32,000 nt of DNA from Candidatus Lokiarchaeum ossiferum (lineage in GTDB: Archaea > Asgardarchaeota > Lokiarchaeia > Sigyniarchaeales > Promethearchaeaceae): the NCBI GenBank assembly GCA_025839675.1, contig CP104013.1, forward strand, positions 1,110,001 to 1,142,000, read 5' to 3'. Below, one piece after another: positions 2,906 to 27,300 of this stretch; the first letter of the stretch is position 1, and each line of letters opens with the position of its first letter. The notes under the pieces were generated by a model. That model did not search any database and had not been told where the DNA came from. It saw only the letters and a list, made by a program, of their open reading frames with translations. Made by a program: the position numbers and the translations under genes.

Positions 2906-3715
2906 ATGACAATTAAATCAAAACGTAAGAAATTCGTAAAACATATCATTAAATATAATGTTTTAGATTACTTTATTCCACGATTAAGAAGACTCTACAA
3001 ACGATTGGGTATTTTAGATGTCATGGACAACTGTTTCTATTGGATTGCATGGAAATTATGCAATTGGGCATTTACAAAGGGTCGATTATGGAGTGGTGAT
3101 TCCACCCATGAAGCAAATGTACCACAAACAGGCGCAGGAATTTTCATTGCAAATCATAGTCACGCCTTAGATCCATTCATTTCTGCATGTCGTATTAATC
3201 GAAAAGTCCACTGGGTTTCTAAAATAGAAAATTACTATCTTCCATTCTTCAGACCAATTCTTCAAAGTTCGGGAAGTATTCCAATCCGGCGGGGTGAATC
3301 GGATCAAAATGCTATGCGATTGATCCGCAAAGAACTCTCTCAAGGTGAATTTGTTGGGATGTTTCCTGAAGGAACTCGCACACGAAATGGATATTTGGGA
3401 CGATTTCACACTGGTGCTGCACGATTATGCCTTGAATTCCAAATTCCTTATATTCCAGTTGGAGTTGTTGGCTCTTACAAAAGTAAAATTGGAGATAAAA
3501 TTGATGTCCATGTAGGGCGTGCTCGCTATCCTCCAAAGGGTATGAAAGACAATTACGAAAATGCAAAATGGTTTGCAGAACAAATGCGCCAAGATATTCT
3601 TCGGTTAAGTGGAGCAGTTCCAGATCCACAGTATGTTAAAGCAAAAGCTGTCAATGCTAAGGTGGAAGAAATTCCAACAGCAGTTTCCACTCCAAGCATC
3701 ACCAAGATGCATTAA
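2906..3715 (+). CDS. plsC: 1-acyl-sn-glycerol-3-phosphate acyltransferase-like (PlsC family)
   Basis: The glycerolipid acyltransferase blocks are present: ANHSHALD (HX4D catalytic motif), FPEGTRTRNG (block III), IPYIPVGVVG (block IV). Confidence 0.85.
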   Translation: MTIKSKRKKFVKHIIKYNVLDYFIPRLRRLYKRLGILDVMDNCFYWIAWKLCNWAFTKGRLWSGDSTHEANVPQTGAGIFIANHSHALDPFISACRINRKVHWVSKIENYYLPFFRPILQSSGSIPIRRGESDQNAMRLIRKELSQGEFVGMFPEGTRTRNGYLGRFHTGAARLCLEFQIPYIPVGVVGSYKSKIGDKIDVHVGRARYPPKGMKDNYENAKWFAEQMRQDILRLSGAVPDPQYVKAKAVNAKVEEIPTAVSTPSITKMH

Positions 3716-3827: not shown

Positions 3828-4820
3828 TTAGATTAACGCCAGAAGGTCTTTGATTGCTTTTTCCATCAATTTTCCTTCATGTAAAACCTTATACACTTGA
3901 GTTGTCAGAGGCAAATCGATACCATTCTCTTGAGCAAATTGATATATGGATTCTGCCGCCCAGACACCTTCTGCAACCATACCATGCATCTCATCACTAA
4001 TTTGATCAAGGGTTTTACCTCGCGCTATCTCTTCTCCATAAAAATGGTTTCGCGATAACTTCGAACTACAAGTAGCGATTAAATCCCCAATTCCCGCGAT
4101 TCCAAAGAAAGTCCCTCGGGTACACCCAAAATGTTTGCCAATCCGATTCATTTCATGCAATCCTAAGGTCATGATGCTTCCTTTTGAGTTATTCCCTAAA
4201 TTCAATCCATCACAAAATCCTACGGCAATAGCTGTTATATTTTTAACGGCACCGCAAATTTCAATACCTCGTTCATCGGTGATAGCGTAGGGTTTGAAAT
4301 ATTCCGTATGAAAGAGATCCACGAGCTCAGGCAGGATTTCTTCGTGAATAGAAGCAATTACTGTAGCAGTAGGCTGCATATGCGCCACTTCGGATGAGAG
4401 ATTAGGACCAGATAACGCAGCCACTTTCACATTAGATGGAAGAACTTCCCTTAATACTTCAGACATCAGCTTGAAGGTGGTATATTCCAGCCCTTTGGAG
4501 ACGGAAACCAATTTATATTTTTGATCATTTTTAAAGAAAGGTGATATTTGCTCCGCAATCTTGCGAACGTGGCTGGAGGGAACCGCAAATACAAGAATTT
4601 CCGCGTTTGGAATCACTTCTTCGAATTTTGAAAATGCAACTAAATTTGAAGACAAGTGTATGGAAGGAAGAAATTGCTTGTTTTCGTGAAAATTATTTAT
4701 ATTGTCAACAGTTTCTTGTTCAAATGACCAAATTTTAACAAGAAATCCTTTTGTGGCTAGAAGATTACCAAGTGTTGTTCCCCAACCCCCCGCGCCAATC
4801 ACCGATATTTCCGGTACCAT
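3828..4820 (-). CDS. gpsA: NAD(P)H-dependent sn-glycerol-3-phosphate dehydrogenase (GpsA type)
   Basis: Collinear with bacterial GpsA along its length: VIGAGGWGTTLGNLLA (Rossmann), SKGLE, LSGPNLSSEVA, GAVKNITAIAVGFCDGL, GIGDLIATCSSKLSRN, MVAEGV. I prefer the ATG at 4820 (MVPEISVIGAG). The ORF track starts at a GTG at 4838. Confidence 0.9.
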   Translation of the reverse strand: MVPEISVIGAGGWGTTLGNLLATKGFLVKIWSFEQETVDNINNFHENKQFLPSIHLSSNLVAFSKFEEVIPNAEILVFAVPSSHVRKIAEQISPFFKNDQKYKLVSVSKGLEYTTFKLMSEVLREVLPSNVKVAALSGPNLSSEVAHMQPTATVIASIHEEILPELVDLFHTEYFKPYAITDERGIEICGAVKNITAIAVGFCDGLNLGNNSKGSIMTLGLHEMNRIGKHFGCTRGTFFGIAGIGDLIATCSSKLSRNHFYGEEIARGKTLDQISDEMHGMVAEGVWAAESIYQFAQENGIDLPLTTQVYKVLHEGKLMEKAIKDLLALI

Positions 4821-5006
4821 AAAAATAGGAAAACCCACATTTTATATGAATCTTCAGCTTTAGGTTGAAAATCCTACTTTTGTCCATCGGATTCTTCGGA
4901 TTGGATTCAAAATTTCGTTTTTCATATTTTTTTTCATGTTAGGTTCACCTTCGATTGAGAATATTATCTCAAACTTCATATTATTAGACTTCTTTTTCAC
5001 ATTCAT

Positions 5007-21667: not shown

Positions 21668-22384
21668 AGTGTATTAAAGAATCTGGAATAATAACATTCT
21701 AACCTTTTTTTTCTATTTTTAATAATCAAATCCTTCATAGGTAATTCTGACCAACATAATTATCACAACCAAGAAATACTATCCAATTTATTAGCTATAA
21801 ATCAAGGTTGGAAGGTATTCTGGGAGATGGGGACATGGGAGAGCGACTTTATAAAAAAGAGGGAAGCAAAAAAAAGTAAAACCGATAAATATGGGGGAGA
21901 ATTACTTTTTTTTGATTTCACTTATTTTTGAAATTAACACAACTATGGGCAATGCAATTGTTGCCATCCAAACTGAAAAAGGAGCAGTAATTTCGGAGAT
22001 GGTCTTAATTATAGTCGGAATAATTTGAGGAGAAATCCTTTTTACCAACAAAGAAGTAAATAACCTGTTATAAATTCGAAAAAGTAACCAAAATCTCTAT
22101 TCTAAGGCAAGTTTGATTTAATATTGCATTTTTGTTATGATAAATTCCTTTTTTTGTAGACAGGGGATTAAAGTAAAAGCTTAGACTGATCATACACACT
22201 CTTTTTGAAAAATCGAATTTTACTCAAATATAAAATGACAAACCAACCATGAGGAGAAGCATAAAATTAATCTATGACGATTTATTCCCAAATTATAGGG
22301 TTAGGTTGATTTTTTCTTCATTTAAGTGAATTAGAGATATTTTAAACAAAACTAAAAATGTGATACACACTAAAAATACATACC

Positions 22385-22392
22385 TTTATATA
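22385..22392 (+). promoter_or_regulatory. Candidate TATA box upstream of the mini-ORF array
   Basis: TTTATATA lies 65 nt upstream of the first mini-ORF ATG. It is flanked by GATACAC at 22362-22368 and 22396-22402. Confidence 0.35.
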
Positions 22393-22456
22393 TTAGATAC
22401 ACCTTAATATAATTAGAAACACATCTCTAATACATAAAAAATGCGGTGCAAAAAAA

Positions 22457-22525
22457 ATGAAAACTCACACTCAAAAAACGGAAAATGTCTGGAGCTTAGT
22501 CTCAACCCGAACCCAATACTACTAA
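22457..22525 (+). CDS. Mini-ORF P1, 22 aa: MKTHTQKTENVWSLVSTRTQYY
   Basis: Member of a 5-copy tandem peptide family. Followed by a T6 tract. No obvious RBS. Confidence 0.45.
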   Translation: MKTHTQKTENVWSLVSTRTQYY

Positions 22526-22563
22526 ACTTTTTTCACACATACAACCCCTGGAGAACCTAAAAA

Positions 22564-22632
22564 ATGAAAACTCACACTCAAAAAACGGAAAATGTTTGGA
22601 GCTTAGTCTCAACCCGAACCCAATACTACTAA
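22564..22632 (+). CDS. Mini-ORF P2, 22 aa: MKTHTQKTENVWSLVSTRTQYY
   Basis: GGAG lies 10 nt upstream of the ATG. The only nucleotide difference from P1 is a synonymous GTC to GTT. Followed by a T6 tract. Confidence 0.55.
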   Translation: MKTHTQKTENVWSLVSTRTQYY

Positions 22633-22667
22633 TCTTTTTTCAAAAATACCCTTGGAGAACATCTAAA

Positions 22668-22739
22668 ATGCGAAAAAATCACACAACACAAAATATCAAA
22701 GTCTGGGAATTAGTTGCTCCTAATCCCCGCTTCTATTAA
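22668..22739 (+). CDS. Mini-ORF P3, 23 aa: MRKNHTTQNIKVWELVAPNPRFY
   Basis: GGAG lies 10 nt upstream of the ATG. The nucleotide sequence has diverged but keeps the VW-x-L-V ... aromatic-aromatic-stop pattern. Confidence 0.5.
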   Translation: MRKNHTTQNIKVWELVAPNPRFY

Positions 22740-22787
22740 AACCCCTTTTTTCAAAGATACACAAAAAAAAAAACAAAGTGAACTACC

Positions 22788-22862
22788 GTGAACACAAATT
22801 TAAAAACTTCCCGAACCGAAAATGTCTGGAGCTTTGTCTCAAACCGAACTCAATATTTCTGA
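22788..22862 (+). CDS. Mini-ORF P4, 24 aa (GTG start): MNTNLKTSRTENVWSFVSNRTQYF
   Basis: Same peptide pattern, followed by a T8 tract. It has no ATG and no RBS, so it may be decaying. Confidence 0.35.
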   Translation: MNTNLKTSRTENVWSFVSNRTQYF

Positions 22863-22910
22863 TTTTTTTTAAAAAACTACAACCTATAACACAGGAGATG
22901 CCACACTACA

Positions 22911-22967
22911 ATGAAAAAAAATACCCCATCAATCTGGAATCAAATTAGCAATAAACAGTATTTCTAG
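22911..22967 (+). CDS. Mini-ORF P5, 18 aa: MKKNTPSIWNQISNKQYF
   Basis: Shorter family member (IW-x-Q-I-S ... QYF-stop). GGAG lies 13 nt upstream. Confidence 0.4.
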   Translation: MKKNTPSIWNQISNKQYF

Positions 22968-23175
22968 TTTTTCTCCCCACTTCCTGCAATCCTCATTATT
23001 CAAGGAATATATCCTTTTCATCAATCCTTGTGCTGGACACATTTTAACCTACAATAAAAAATAAAACATACACCTTCTTTTTCCCAAAAAAAGTTAGAAA
23101 TTCAGAATTAAAAAGCATTTTTACTAATTTCTAATGAAACCCATTCATATCATTTTTTGACTTGAAAACGATTGG

Positions 23176-24084
23176 ATGAGTATGCAAGAAATTCCGATTT
23201 TTGACTCAACAAATCTTTCCGAAATAACCCAAAATATTGAAATCTTTATTAAAAATGCATTAAAACGATTGAAGAAGGATGGTGCAATAATTGGACTTAG
23301 CGGAGGATTAGATTCTGCTGTTACTGCAACCTTACTAGTGAGAAGTTTGGGATTATCGAAAGTAAAATTGTTAAACATGCCAGAAAAAGATAGTAAAAGC
23401 ATCCATCAACGTCACGCGAAACAATTAGCAAATCATCTGGGAATTAAGTTAATGAAAAGGCGAATAAATGGTCCCTTGAGAGTGAGTGGAACATATCGTT
23501 TATTGCCTCTGCGTTTCATTCCGACTCAAAAACTCCGTGCATTGTTAATAAAAGTAGGAAAAAAGCGATTTTTATCAGATGGAGATGCCCATCTATTATT
23601 GGATCGCTTTTCCTATAGGCCAAGATCTTGGATGGCTCGAGCAAATGCATATGCAATGACTAAGCATCGAATGAGGATGACTTTCATTTACAAATATGCA
23701 GACTTTTTAAATTATGCAGTTGTCGGAGCTGCGAATCGTACAGAATGGTTAACAGGAACTTTTTCAAAATGGGGAATTGATCATTGTGCAGATATCATGC
23801 CAATTATTCATGTTTATCGATCTCAATTGGATCCATTAGCGAAATATTTACAAATACCAGACTATATTCGATTTAAAGGAGCAGATCCAGATATAATTCC
23901 AGGGGATTTAAATAAAGGGGATTTATTGGGAGGATTTTCTTTAGTAGATCAAATTCTTTTCAACCTTGAAAATGGATTACCTAAGGAGAAGTTGTTTGAG
24001 AAATTTGATAAATCGAGGGTCGAGATTATCGATCAGCTATGGAAAAATTCTCAATGTATGAGGGAAATTCCCTACCATCTATAA
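23176..24084 (+). CDS. NAD+ synthetase-like PP-loop ATP pyrophosphatase (NadE family) with an internal insertion
   Basis: PP-loop GLSGGLDSAV. NadE-like blocks are KHRMRMTFIYKYAD, VVGAANRTEWLTGTFSKWGI..ADIMPI and LAKYLQIP. About 35-50 extra residues (RRINGPLRVSGTYRLLPLRFIPTQKLRALLIKVGKK...) follow the first alpha/beta unit. Confidence 0.7.
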   Translation: MSMQEIPIFDSTNLSEITQNIEIFIKNALKRLKKDGAIIGLSGGLDSAVTATLLVRSLGLSKVKLLNMPEKDSKSIHQRHAKQLANHLGIKLMKRRINGPLRVSGTYRLLPLRFIPTQKLRALLIKVGKKRFLSDGDAHLLLDRFSYRPRSWMARANAYAMTKHRMRMTFIYKYADFLNYAVVGAANRTEWLTGTFSKWGIDHCADIMPIIHVYRSQLDPLAKYLQIPDYIRFKGADPDIIPGDLNKGDLLGGFSLVDQILFNLENGLPKEKLFEKFDKSRVEIIDQLWKNSQCMREIPYHL

Positions 24085-24392
24085 TTACTGTTTTTGACAA
24101 TAAAAATTGATTATATATAGGAAATGATTAATAATTGTTATTCCCCATAATTGATTTATCACAAATCGTTTAATTTACAAGATGAAAAAATGTCAAATGG
24201 ATCTAATTTTGCTGGAACTATTATTGCCAGCATTTTAATTACATTAGTCTTAACCAGAACTAGGATGAATTTTGGGTTACCCTTAATACTTCCAAATATG
24301 ACTAGCCATTTATCGGAGTGTGCACTTACCGATGATCTTACTGATGGTTGTAGACGGAAGGACCCAAAAGTACAAAAAAATAGGAAGATGAA

Positions 24393-27300
24393 CTATTTTG
24401 AATTGTGATCATTTGAGTTCGAGTTAGAACTTTTTTTTGTTTTTGTATTCTTAACCGTTTGTTTTGCAGTCTTTACTTGTGTTTTTCTTGAAGTTTTCTT
24501 AGAAATTTTCTTTTTAAATGCAGTATCTTCTTTGGTAATTATCCGCTTTTGAGATTTTTTTTCAGTCATCGTTTTGTTTTGCAATTCGGTCTTATTTTCT
24601 ATCTTGAGGTTTTCAGATTCAGAGGGAATTTTATTCTCAACGAGATTTGTTGTGTTTGCAAGATCCTTTAGATTTTGTTTTGCAGCACTAAGTTCTTCTT
24701 TAAAGATCGAATCACTTTTAGAACTATTATTATCTCCTTTCGATTTTTTAGGTATTATCTGTATTTCGTTGTTAGCTTCCATTGTATTTATACCAATTTT
24801 CTCTTCTGGATTGGAGAAATCAGCGACTTTATTGGATCGAGGAGGTCGAATAATTTGAGTTTTATCTTCATTTTTTTCAATTTTAGAATCACCAGGCATA
24901 TCTTTCTGTTTACTCTCCTTAAAAATAGATTTCTTTTTGGTTACTGAAGATTCAGGTCCAATTCCATTTATTTTAGATGGTTTTTCCAAATCTTTGGGAG
25001 AATAAAACTTCTTTTGATGAGATTTAGAACTTTGTTTCAATTTTCCTAAACTGAATCTGCTCTTTTTTTCCTGAGATTTTGGCACTTCTTGCCTTCGAGA
25101 GACTTCATCAAGAATTTGACGATCGCTATCGGTCATCAAGATCACTTTATTTTCATCTATAGCATTTTTGGAAATATCTTCAGGTGTTATGTTGTCATAT
25201 AATCCGAAGTTCCGTTGTCTCCAAATGAGAAATACAATAGTAGATATTGAGCCAGCTAGAAGTACAGCTAAAATACTAATAATCCACCAAAGTGCTGCAT
25301 TCCCTCGATTTTCTGTTCTATCTCCAGTACCAATATCTGCATTTGGATCTTCAACCACAATTAAAACACTATCAGAAACGCTAACTCCGGAAGCAGAAAC
25401 GAGAATGCACTCAAATAAATAGGTACCTACAGTTAAATTATTCACGTTGATAGCAATTGGTTCGCCACTTTGCCATTCGCCTTCATAGATGATAACCCCA
25501 TTTTGTTTAATAATTACATTTCCAGGATTAGGAGAATTTCCATACCAAGTAATGGTTGAAGCAGTCTGATTCACATCTAAAACCACATCTTGTGGTTGAG
25601 AAATGGTTGGAGCAGGGTCTAAAACGATTACTACAACGGAGTCATATACCATCATTCCACTCGTCGAATTAAGGACGCACTCATAAAGATACGAACCAGC
25701 GATTAATCCATCAAGATCGATTGAAATGTCAAGCGAAGAAGTCCAATTATCGAGGAATATTACTTCTCCATCTTTCAAGATTTTAACTTTATCAGGTATT
25801 AAAGAGTTTCCCACCCAGGTTATGTTTTGACCAATCTGATTTATAAGAAAAGATTTATCTGGAGGATGGCTTATCTCCATATTTGGTTCTAAGACTGTAA
25901 GAATTACCGCATCATAAACAACGTTTCCAGTGGTTGTATTTAGATAACATTCATAAAGATATACACCTGGCATTAAACCATCAATGGGGAGAATGATATT
26001 TTCTGAAGAATTCCAAGGATTCTCAAAAATCAGAATATTGTCTTTAAAAATTTTAATATGATCCGGTATTGGGGACGTCCCTACCCAAGTGATATTATTA
26101 TTTAAACTCAAAACAATATAGGAACGATCCTCAGGATGTGAAATTGTGGGAGGAGGTTCTAATACTGTGATAGTGATGGAGTCATATGCAATTTCATTTG
26201 AAGTGGAATTAACATAGAGTTCAAAAGTGTATATTCCTGGATCTAAGTCAGCAATCTCGATAATAAAGGGTTCATCACTATTCCATGATGTATTAGACTC
26301 AATTAATAAACCATTCCGATAAATTAACGCAGTATCTTCTAGAGGTGTATTTACCGACCATATAATTGGATTAACAAACTCTGTAACATTGAACACCACA
26401 TCTTCTGTGGCTGTTATTATAGGATGTGTGCGAATTACTGTAACCAGAACACTATCACTTGAAAAATCACCTTGCGTTGAATTTACAAAGCACGTATACT
26501 GATAAATTCCGACTTGTAATGAATCAATATTAATTAGTATCGGAATATTGTTCTCCCATAACCCTGTTGCAATTATACTTCCATTCCGAGTTATATTGTA
26601 ATAGTTGGGATCAGTAGTATTAGCATTCCAACTGATGCTAAAACCCGTGTACCCAAAATAATAGGATACATCGCCCGTGGATGAAATATTTGGTTTTGGT
26701 TGTAAGTTATAACCATCCCACCAAATAGGAAAACGATCTTCCCCATTGGGCAATATATAATATGACATATTACCAATATAATCATCATCCCAATCATTTC
26801 CAGCAAAGTCATCCCAGTAATTTCCCATTGTACCATTATCCCATAAATTTAGAAAGCCTTCATCAACTGCATGCAATCCATTAGATGAAAAATTATTGAA
26901 ATAAATTTCACTAGATATCGCATTTGCATATAATCCAATTCCAATCCCTGTAGTATTCCAAATATAATTAGAAACAATTAAACTGTCTTGACAATCAGTG
27001 ATTATATAAATTCCAAATGCTGTATTGTTAGAAATGCTACAATTGATAATCTCATTAGAATCACAATTGCTTTCCACTTTAATCCCATATTCTGAGTTAA
27101 ATGAAATTGAATTATTATAAATTTCATTGGAATCACAGAGATCATGAAGGAAAATTCCATGTTGGTTGTTGTATGAAATATTATTATAAAGAATTTGACA
27201 ATAATCGCTATCATCATCAATCCAAATTCCATGTAAGTTGTTATAGGATATATTATTCCATTTAATGAAGGATGAATCGCTTCTTTCATTAATATAAATC

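Follow-up and report, generated by a model that had tools for sequence, protein, structure and literature searches.

Within a 32,000-nucleotide stretch of the genome of Candidatus Lokiarchaeum ossiferum strain B35 (contig CP104013.1, positions 1,110,001 to 1,142,000; hereafter the window, whose positions serve as coordinates unless another locus is named), five short open reading frames (ORFs) of 18-24 codons are arranged in tandem on the + strand across positions 22457-22967. These ORFs, designated P1 to P5, are very probably translated genes, as judged from the pattern of sequence change between genomes. What the comparison with a second strain, B36, and with a related species shows is a set of apparently autonomous micro-genes, maintained by selection, in which one product is encoded twice. 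The interpretation favoured here, with moderate confidence, is that the array consists of five real and unannotated micro-genes belonging to a tandemly duplicated, Lokiarchaeum-restricted family, whose peptides would act unmodified as docking ligands. An original prediction, made from the letters of the window, had already read the ORFs as coding, a claim now strengthened by frame-specific substitutions, by indels confined to the spacers and by frames kept in a second strain and a second species.

P1 (22457-22525, +) encodes the 22-residue peptide MKTHTQKTENVWSLVSTRTQYY and P2 (22564-22632, +) the same 22 residues, MKTHTQKTENVWSLVSTRTQYY, each ending in TAA. P3 (22668-22739, +; 23 residues, MRKNHTTQNIKVWELVAPNPRFY) also closes with TAA, P4 (22788-22862, +; 24 residues, MNTNLKTSRTENVWSFVSNRTQYF) with TGA and P5 (22911-22967, +; 18 residues, MKKNTPSIWNQISNKQYF) with TAG. 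P4 begins with a GTG codon, i.e. (M)NTNLKTSRTENVWSFVSNRTQYF, a feature absent from the original prediction. The predicted spacing of about 105-125 bp between five same-strand mini-ORFs agrees with what was measured, the ORFs all being located as described and their starts lying 107, 104, 120 and 123 nt apart along the array. P1 and P2 differ by a single base, a synonymous GTC/GTT exchange, which had also been foreseen as their sole difference. At the DNA level, units 1 and 2 form a 107-bp tandem repeat (95% matches, score 368; Tandem Repeats Finder, TRF), unit 4 is 66% identical to units 1/2 over 91 nt in an ungapped alignment, and unit 3 has the spacer motifs CTTTTTTCAnAnATAC and TGGAGAAC in common with the flanks of other units. 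The common ground of unit 5 with the rest of the array consists of the peptide motif and the architecture only. A deliberately broad regular expression for this motif matches five of the 1954 six-frame stop-to-stop segments of the window, and these are exactly P1 to P5.

Eight distinct peptides occur across B35, B36 and the related species. Invariant among them are the initiator, a [VI]-W pair, a further [VI] three residues past the tryptophan and a C-terminal [QR]-[YF]-[YF]. The tryptophan is followed by 10 residues in P1-P4 and by 9 in P5 and its orthologues. A variable stretch of 3-5 residues (STRT, SNRT, APNP, SNK, HSQ or HNQ) separates the two conserved patches, and the basic, polar N-terminal tail of 8-13 residues varies in both length and sequence. 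It is in these tails and inter-patch residues that P3, P4 and P5 diverge rapidly.

Comparison with B36 and with the related species supplies evidence of coding. The closed genome of this strain (CP163304, assigned to L. ossiferum B36 by a 2026 preprint, bioRxiv 10.64898/2026.02.13.705702) was reached through the metallo-beta-lactamase (MBL)-fold hydrolase upstream of the array, and its corresponding locus (L017) contains the same five units with ORFs of equal length, P1 and P2 again both encoding MKTHTQKTENVWSLVSTRTQYY. The B36 P1 peptide is identical to that of B35, with one synonymous nucleotide change, and P2 carries two synonymous changes, so that all three changes in P1/P2 (3/3) are silent. 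The B36 orthologue of P3 is MRKNHKKQHIKVWELVAPNPRFF; that of P4 starts, at the aligned position, with ATG, encodes MNNYSKTSGTENVWSLVSTRTQYF and stops at TAA; that of P5 is MKKNTPAIWNQIHSQQYF, with a TAA stop. In the related species (locus L013), whose NadE, an enzyme encoded downstream of the array, is 84% identical, the contig opens with a P5 orthologue of equal length (MKKTTQPIWNQIHNQQYF, stop TAA). The P5 leader and ORF of this species are far better conserved than the ~250 nt that lead up to NadE, which are ~50% identical and gapped. No frameshift and no internal stop was found in the P1-P5 frames of any genome carrying them; loss of the frame in relatives was the outcome that the original prediction had named as speaking against it, and the frames are intact in both B36 and the related species.

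Between B35 and B36 there are no indels in the 342 nt of ORF, as against five, one per spacer, in the 202 nt of spacer sequence, and the chance of all five missing the ORFs under uniform placement is (202/544)^5 = 0.007. Identity of the ORFs from P1 to P5 is 98.6, 97.1, 94.4, 84.0 and 84.2%, as compared with 69-76% in the spacers that follow P3, P4 and P5 and 86-88%, with indels, in the intergenic surroundings; for the flanking MBL gene the figure is 96.7%, with 18 synonymous to 5 non-synonymous codon changes. The position of each stop is fixed and its identity is not: the B35 series TAA, TAA, TAA, TGA, TAG is TAA throughout in B36 and in the third species. Similarly, the start of P4 is GTG in B35 and ATG in B36, and the codon of one aligned serine reads TCA in P1/P4 and AGC in P5. 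Ungapped orthologous pairs were also randomised: as many substitutions as observed were placed at arbitrary positions, a null that assumes uniform substitution, and the translations were scored by BLOSUM62. For frame +0, none of 5000 randomisations reached the observed score (P < 2e-4) and there were no internal stops, whereas the other five frames contained 5-38 stops and gave P = 0.018-0.74. Among pairs alignable as nucleotides, P1/P4 gave P = 0.0012 and P5 against its L013 orthologue P = 0.003; the good scores of more distant paralogue pairs are biased towards frame 0 because these were aligned at the protein level. Alternative-frame ORFs of 39, 47 and 56 residues were considered and rejected, being interrupted in units 3 and 5 and carrying no coding signal. 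P1 and P2 act as one gene under strong constraint that is carried in two doses.

Several observations weigh against this interpretation or limit its reach. Over all five ORFs, the B35/B36 comparison yields 10 peptide-neutral codon changes (8 synonymous and 2 stop-to-stop) against 15 non-synonymous ones, which indicates that purifying selection is weak on average and spread very unevenly over the codons. P4 and P5, at 84% identity, evolve about as fast as nearby intergenic DNA (86-88%). Relative to B35, the GTC/GTT difference has changed places between P1 and P2 of B36, whose P4 is moreover P1-like in its C-terminal half; together these two features suggest gene conversion among the units, a process that could mimic constraint on P1/P2. 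The randomisation takes substitution to be uniform, the comparative depth is three genomes, and the family was detected in Lokiarchaeum only. Leave-one-out hidden Markov models (HMMs) recovered neither P5 nor P3 from the other members. Because of this failure, the kinship of P5 rests on motif, position and architecture, and that of unit 3 on homology of the flanking DNA. The claim of a single family is consequently solid for P1, P2 and P4, and is supported for unit 3 through its DNA flanks and for P5 through motif, position and layout.

Signals resembling those of expressed genes accompany each unit. Upstream of P1, a 20-bp tandem duplication (22382-22422, +; ACCTTAATATAATTAGAAAC x2.1 by TRF), kept in B36, constitutes one or more candidate promoters and includes two TATA-like boxes, TTTATATA (22386-22393) and TTAATATAA (22404-22412). 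This duplicated element may be a doubled promoter of the array; archaeal TATA-box geometry would place the transcription start near 22434, leaving a leader of ~23 nt. A Shine-Dalgarno (SD)-like GGTG (22445-22448, +) lies 8 nt 5' of the P1 ATG, and GGAG is found 10 nt before the ATG of P2 (22550-22553, +), 10 nt before that of P3 (22654-22657, +) and 13 nt before that of P5 (22894-22897, +), where the leader AGGAGATGnCACACTAnAATG is kept in three genomes. P4 is preceded by a weak GTGA as its only SD-like motif. GGAG also precedes real genes of the window, at 10 nt for the histone, 9 nt for the MBL hydrolase and 10 and 12 nt for two others, and the motif scan thus agrees with the histone-like spacing originally proposed for P2 and P3.

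Each unit also closes, as had been proposed, in a run of five to eight T residues, located 0-6 nt past the stops. Terminator-like T6 runs follow P1 (22528-22533, +; 2 nt past the stop), P2 (22635-22640, +; 2 nt) and P3 (22746-22751, +; 6 nt), the first of these lying in the motif CTTTTTTCAnAnATAC, which is repeated after P1, P2 and P3. A T8 run directly abuts the P4 stop (22863-22870, +; 0 nt) and forms, with the following A6, the element TTTTAAAA, which might also serve unit 5 as a TATA box. After P5, a T5 run (22968-22972, +) again begins 0 nt past the stop, and homology to B36 ends ~25 nt beyond it. The oligo-T tracts after the stops are kept in three genomes; ordinary genes of the window also have T-runs, 2-35 nt past their stops.

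The peptides themselves are hydrophilic and basic, with a grand average of hydropathy (GRAVY) of -0.8 to -1.3, an isoelectric point of 8.3-11.2 and a mass of 2.2-2.9 kDa. P1-P5 contain no cysteine, no glycine, no signal peptide and no hydrophobic segment, the top 9-residue Kyte-Doolittle window being <=0.96; this hydropathy profile agrees with the original description of the peptides as devoid of cysteine, signal peptide and transmembrane segment. Their helical hydrophobic moment is 0.3-1.2, as compared with 1.45 for PSM-alpha3, and the C-terminal half of P3 contains two prolines. An AlphaFold model of the 42-residue stop-to-stop translation around P1 has a mean predicted local distance difference test (pLDDT) score of 60 and no confident fold, with a low-confidence helical turn of six residues over VWSLVS only.

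In the mechanism proposed for the array, the duplicated TATA element in front of P1 would be where transcription starts, and the transcript would extend through the units as an mRNA that is nested or polycistronic. The oligo-T tracts would serve as leaky archaeal terminators that grade expression along the array, and the promoter-proximal P1 and P2 would therefore be made most. Internal cistrons would be translated from their own SD motifs and the products would be largely disordered small peptides, acting unmodified. The best guess as to their action is docking on a partner macromolecule through the tryptophan patch and the free di-aromatic C-terminus; membrane toxins, precursors of modified peptides and cis-regulatory leaders are not what such products would be. 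Known docking motifs offer only formal parallels: W-x-x-[VI] fits an LC3-interacting region (LIR) core, the penultimate aromatic fits an HbYX motif in part, and a PDZ ligand was considered, none of these being claimed. A PIP-box reading of the C-terminus was set aside as the spacing does not fit.

The original prediction had placed the array among loci for precursors of ribosomally synthesized and post-translationally modified peptides (RiPPs) or for peptide signals. On such a reading, the products would carry modifications, leave the cell, or both, and their targets would be external, such as other Lokiarchaeum cells or syntrophic partners, an explanation that is now unlikely. It draws on the multi-copy arrangement of tiny peptides and on the rapid diversification of P3-P5 around a conserved core, which resemble pheromone, bacteriocin and multi-precursor loci, and on the position of the array at the border of a strain-variable region of giant surface proteins. 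Tryptophan and C-terminal aromatic residues are, moreover, typical cross-linking substrates, and multi-precursor RiPP loci (prochlorosin/lanthipeptide, cyanobactin and radical-SAM) likewise comprise adjacent small paralogous genes with conserved tryptophan and aromatics. However, in both strains the ~10 kb before the array and the 8-9 kb after it are free of genes for a radical-SAM enzyme, YcaO, lanthionine synthetase, prenyltransferase, peptidase or ATP-binding cassette (ABC) exporter; neither B35 nor B36 has a maturase, protease, exporter or receptor gene beside the array, and NadE is missing from the B36 locus. No precursor family of NCBIfam or Pfam was matched at E<=10, and the peptides, at 18-24 residues shorter than a typical leader plus core, have a variable N-terminus and no signal peptide, cysteine, glycine, conserved leader or cleavage motif (GG, GA or similar). 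Quorum-sensing cassettes differ in the same respects, as the array peptides have no hydrophobic N-terminus and the locus has no transporter, protease or adjacent receptor gene; the nearest histidine kinase (HisKA) lies ~7 kb away on the opposite strand. A cis-acting role is less probable again: each ORF would be a leader peptide, whose arrest or sensing by the ribosome decides termination at the oligo-T after the stop, the whole forming an attenuator cascade for downstream genes. Such a reading is very unlikely, although it accounts for the stops lying 0-6 nt from T5-T8 tracts that are conserved in three genomes, for conservation within the C-terminal ~12 residues with the tryptophan fixed 9-10 residues from the end and the N-terminal length free to vary, for the two aromatic codons that close every ORF, and for the start of a 60-residue gene 34 nt past the P5 stop in B36. 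Conservation of this kind recalls arrest peptides of the TnaC or SecM type, and the fixed distance of 9-10 residues from tryptophan to C-terminus is suggestive of a ribosome-arrest peptide. TnaC, of 24 residues, has an essential tryptophan 12 residues from its C-terminus and stalls at its stop codon beside a terminator site; size, a tryptophan at fixed C-terminal distance, conservation of the C-terminal half and a stop abutting a termination signal are all features in common. In contrast to TnaC, the array has five copies in series, no sequence similarity and neither a Rho/rut system nor an antiterminator structure, and the downstream gene is self-promoted and not conserved, being NadE in B35 and L013 and a small hydrophobic protein in B36; both NadE and the B35 72-residue gene have TATA-like elements of their own. 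Alternative hairpins or other RNA structure were not found, T-runs 2-6 nt past the stop also follow ordinary genes of the window, and the constraint on P1/P2 is stronger than a sensing leader needs. We know of no precedent for a chain of five attenuators that includes an identical pair. The more specific version, in which a ribosome held at the aromatic pair and stop on the nascent oligo-U decides termination by RNA polymerase or aCPSF1/FttA, has a marginally slimmer chance still; were it true, read-through to the next unit and to the downstream gene would report translational or aromatic-amino-acid status, and no earlier case of leader-peptide attenuation would be known among Asgard archaea.

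Two further explanations dispense with a functional peptide. The ORFs could be young, effectively neutral proto-genes, recently amplified and open by chance with no selected function, which is decidedly improbable, if not as remote as the attenuator cascade. Confinement to one genus, the divergence of P4/P5 at roughly the rate of flanking intergenic DNA, a ratio of ~1.5 non-synonymous changes per silent change and an A/C-rich composition that is naturally stop-poor in this frame would all be expected of such ORFs. Nevertheless, stops do occur in the remaining five frames of this DNA, indels avoid the ORFs, P1/P2 changes are exclusively synonymous, the P4 start is kept as either GTG or ATG, and the motif residues are invariant in eight distinct peptides while other positions vary. 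P5 is, in addition, kept in a species in which NadE is only 84% identical and the DNA downstream of P5 is ~50% identical and gapped. Least probable of all the alternatives is a non-coding element: the repeats would either encode small RNAs, such as C/D-box-like guides or unstructured CA-rich species, or serve as DNA sites bound by a protein, and the ORFs would be incidental. The units measure 57-75 nt, with A/T runs flanking them on both strands, unit 4 opens with 'AUGA' and closes with 'CUGA' in a faint echo of C and D boxes, and the spacers after P1/P2 and the P5 leader are conserved as much as, or more than, the ORFs. Against this stand the frame-specific coding signal and the retention of stops through TAA/TGA/TAG exchange, the latter also arguing against a C/D-box RNA because the CUGA D box is lost (CTAA in B36). 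C/D-box small RNAs (sRNAs) are defined by a C box (RUGAUGA), a D box (CUGA), C'/D' boxes, k-turns and a 12-nt guide spacing. The units have 5' ends of AUGAAAA or GUGAACA and 3' ends of CUAA, UUAA, CUGA or CUAG that change between strains, and no internal C'/D' boxes, and a C/D-box identity was accordingly rejected. Structured RNA of any other kind was the alternative that the original prediction had set against itself, and it was rejected on three analyses: Rfam gave no family at gathering thresholds and only chance-level matches at E<=10 (snoRNAs at E = 2.5-5), ARAGORN found no tRNA or tmRNA, and on both strands the units folded no better than their shuffled counterparts. Worse folding was seen for units 1, 2 and 4 (z about +1.1 to +1.6), and the lowest score, z = -1.24, belonged to unit 3 read on the minus strand. 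The possibility that the units are 3'-end gene fragments left by integrating elements was likewise discarded, each unit having its own start and SD-like motif and there being no parent gene. Across these comparisons, defining features of RiPP loci, quorum-sensing cassettes, attenuators and C/D-box sRNAs were tested, and the array shows none of them.

Searches for relatives outside the array returned nothing, in agreement with the initial statement that the peptides match no recognised family. The concatenated peptides had no match among 5.8 billion protein clusters, and a profile run against 1.84 billion representative proteins found only WD40 'TIKVWDL' repeats and junk repeats. By exact look-up in ~15 billion proteins, the four B35 peptides of sufficient length for a query, two B36 variants and the alternative-frame ORFs were all absent. 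NCBIfam and Pfam (E<=10), PDB chains and PADLOC each gave zero matches, viral contigs contained no relatives of the array peptides, and the Joint Genome Institute (JGI) metagenomes gave none for patterns of P1/P4 and, for patterns of P5, a single chance match that falls within a long, GC-rich ORF. Gene callers skip ORFs so short, which leaves protein databases nearly blind to peptides of this kind. No paper was found that deals with the peptides, small ORFs or transcriptome maps of this species.

In other genomes of the group, coverage of the locus is limited by assembly. Short-read assemblies of L. ossiferum break around unit 1, with one contig ending at ~22413 and four beginning at ~22603, within unit 2, as is expected of a real repeat. 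Short-read contigs of its relatives end 44-321 nt upstream of NadE; in two relatives other than the L013 species they stop 44-89 nt upstream of it and do not reach the array. As a result of such breaks, the locus is systematically missing from metagenome-assembled Lokiarchaeum genomes. Beyond these, the NadE loci of Promethearchaeum have no array within +/-10 kb, and no array lies downstream of a 64%-identical relative of the MBL hydrolase.

The array is situated between the membrane-anchored MBL-fold hydrolase upstream and, in B35, NadE. The original prediction had recognised a PP-loop ATPase as the sole adjacent enzyme, which would make it a candidate partner of the peptides. That it is the sole enzyme is corrected by the MBL-fold hydrolase on the other side, and the ATPase is the NH3-dependent NAD synthetase NadE, 100% identical in the window to NadE of L. 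ossiferum (locus tag NEF87, strain B-35), a housekeeping enzyme with homologues 53-60% identical in other Asgard genomes (Promethearchaeota, Heimdallarchaeota); a NadE search of genome contigs gave only matches in metagenome-assembled genomes (MAGs) of Chloroflexi and Brocadiaceae, at 38-52% identity. The partnership is not supported either: NadE is absent from the B36 array locus, where the array is present, and Promethearchaeum has NadE without the array. NadE is not the partner of the peptides, since it is absent from the B36 locus, has its own TATA-like block and is a housekeeping enzyme with Asgard homologues. This block, ATTTTTTGAyTTGAAAACkATT, at window positions 23150-23172 (L013 ~293-315), is centred ~26 nt before the NadE ATG and is conserved across species, in contrast to the rest of the upstream DNA; it is probably the BRE/TATA element of a leaderless NadE mRNA. 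Several other genes of the window have A/T-rich boxes at the same distance before their ATG.

The strain difference at this locus is a presence/absence polymorphism of ~1.19 kb, spanning window positions ~22995-24185 against ~12115-12127 of L017, with a breakpoint ~25 nt past the last T-run. In B36, the ~1.19-kb gap takes out NadE, the NadE promoter and the TATA box of the next gene, which encodes a small hypothetical protein (24190-24408, +) of 72 residues in B35 (85 in GenBank UYP44641.1, 72 in RefSeq). The B35 gene has its own TATA-like element. The B36 homologue, of 60 residues (L017 12127-12309), is the gene that starts 34 nt past the P5 stop, and it could be co-transcribed with the array. 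Both versions of the protein have one hydrophobic segment, and their C-termini are wholly different between the strains. Beyond this hypothetical protein, B35 has a convergent gene for a 1911-residue beta-helix surface protein; in B36, an extra gene (L017 12437-16543, -) encoding 1368 residues with no Pfam domain is interposed between the small protein and a 1921-residue beta-helix protein. Pfam calls on the neighbours in the two strains comprise the MBL-fold hydrolase, Acyl_transf_3, NAD_synthase, Flavin_Reduct, beta-helix/NosD and hypothetical proteins.

Upstream of the array, a 75-nt block (~22003-22077) has one mismatch to B36 inside otherwise ~87% identical intergenic DNA and could be a further small gene or sRNA. 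An overlapping ORF of 27 codons (M[GS]NAIVAIQTEKG...; 21948-22028) keeps its frame in both strains, and a 45-residue version of it is called in Logan, the ATG of which is lost in B36 by a 10-nt insertion. Elsewhere in the window, a PlsC-like acyltransferase (2906-3715, +; H-x4-D motif) was identified by eye beside an ORF resembling a GpsA-type glycerol-3-phosphate dehydrogenase (3828-4838, -); as so identified, the pair represents bacterial-type lipid genes in an archaeal genome.

In layout, the array seems closest to the psm-alpha operon of Staphylococcus aureus, which comprises four tandem genes for phenol-soluble modulins (PSMs) of ~20-22 residues, and next to the type I toxin small ORFs (sORFs) of enterobacteria. 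In common with psm-alpha, it has paralogous, same-strand ORFs of ~20 codons in tandem within a few hundred bases, each with a ribosome-binding site and none with a signal peptide, too short for gene callers and long unannotated. PSMs, however, are hydrophobic, amphipathic, membrane-acting helices with dedicated ABC export, whereas the Lokiarchaeum peptides (GRAVY about -1, against +0.3 for PSM-alpha3) have a low helical moment, no amphipathic helix over most of their length and no sequence similarity to PSMs, and come from another domain of life. The enterobacterial type I toxin sORFs (ibs/sib and ldr/rdl) are tandemly repeated genes, the products of which are hydrophobic toxins of the membrane, and every one of them has an antisense RNA as its counterpart. 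They resemble the array in having ORFs of ~18-35 codons within intergenic repeats, a variable copy number and units that diverge between strains, and differ from it in that the Lokiarchaeum peptides have no hydrophobic segment and no conserved antisense structure or ORF was seen. The chemistry is unlike that of either system because the Lokiarchaeum peptides are hydrophilic and not membrane-active. Context on small proteins and PSMs is given in PMC12607899. Work on archaeal small proteomes by ribosome profiling and mass spectrometry in Haloferax volcanii reports that unannotated sORFs well below 50 residues are translated (PMC10117724). The Lokiarchaeum ORFs would be further examples of this class. 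To our knowledge, no tandem five-gene array of one micro-protein family has been described in that Haloferax work or in other archaea.

L. ossiferum is one of the very few cultured Asgard archaea, and published annotations miss genes as short as these. The array has no bearing on eukaryogenesis or other long-standing questions unless a partner or a regulatory role emerges. If translated, it would add to this organism an orphan, genus-specific micro-protein family consisting of two identical 'dosage' copies and three fast-diverging members. Each peptide yields one unique predicted tryptic peptide of 10-12 residues: TENVWSLVSTR (P1/P2), VWELVAPNPR (P3), TENVWSFVSNR (P4) and NTPSIWNQISNK (P5) in B35, and TENVWSLVSTR (P1, P2 and P4), VWELVAPNPR (P3) and NTPAIWNQIHSQQYF (P5) in B36. 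Cultures exist, as does a proteome dataset of B36 (PXD055577, cited in bioRxiv 10.64898/2026.02.13.705702), and the array thereby offers a concrete and cheap test case for the hidden small proteomes of Asgard archaea.

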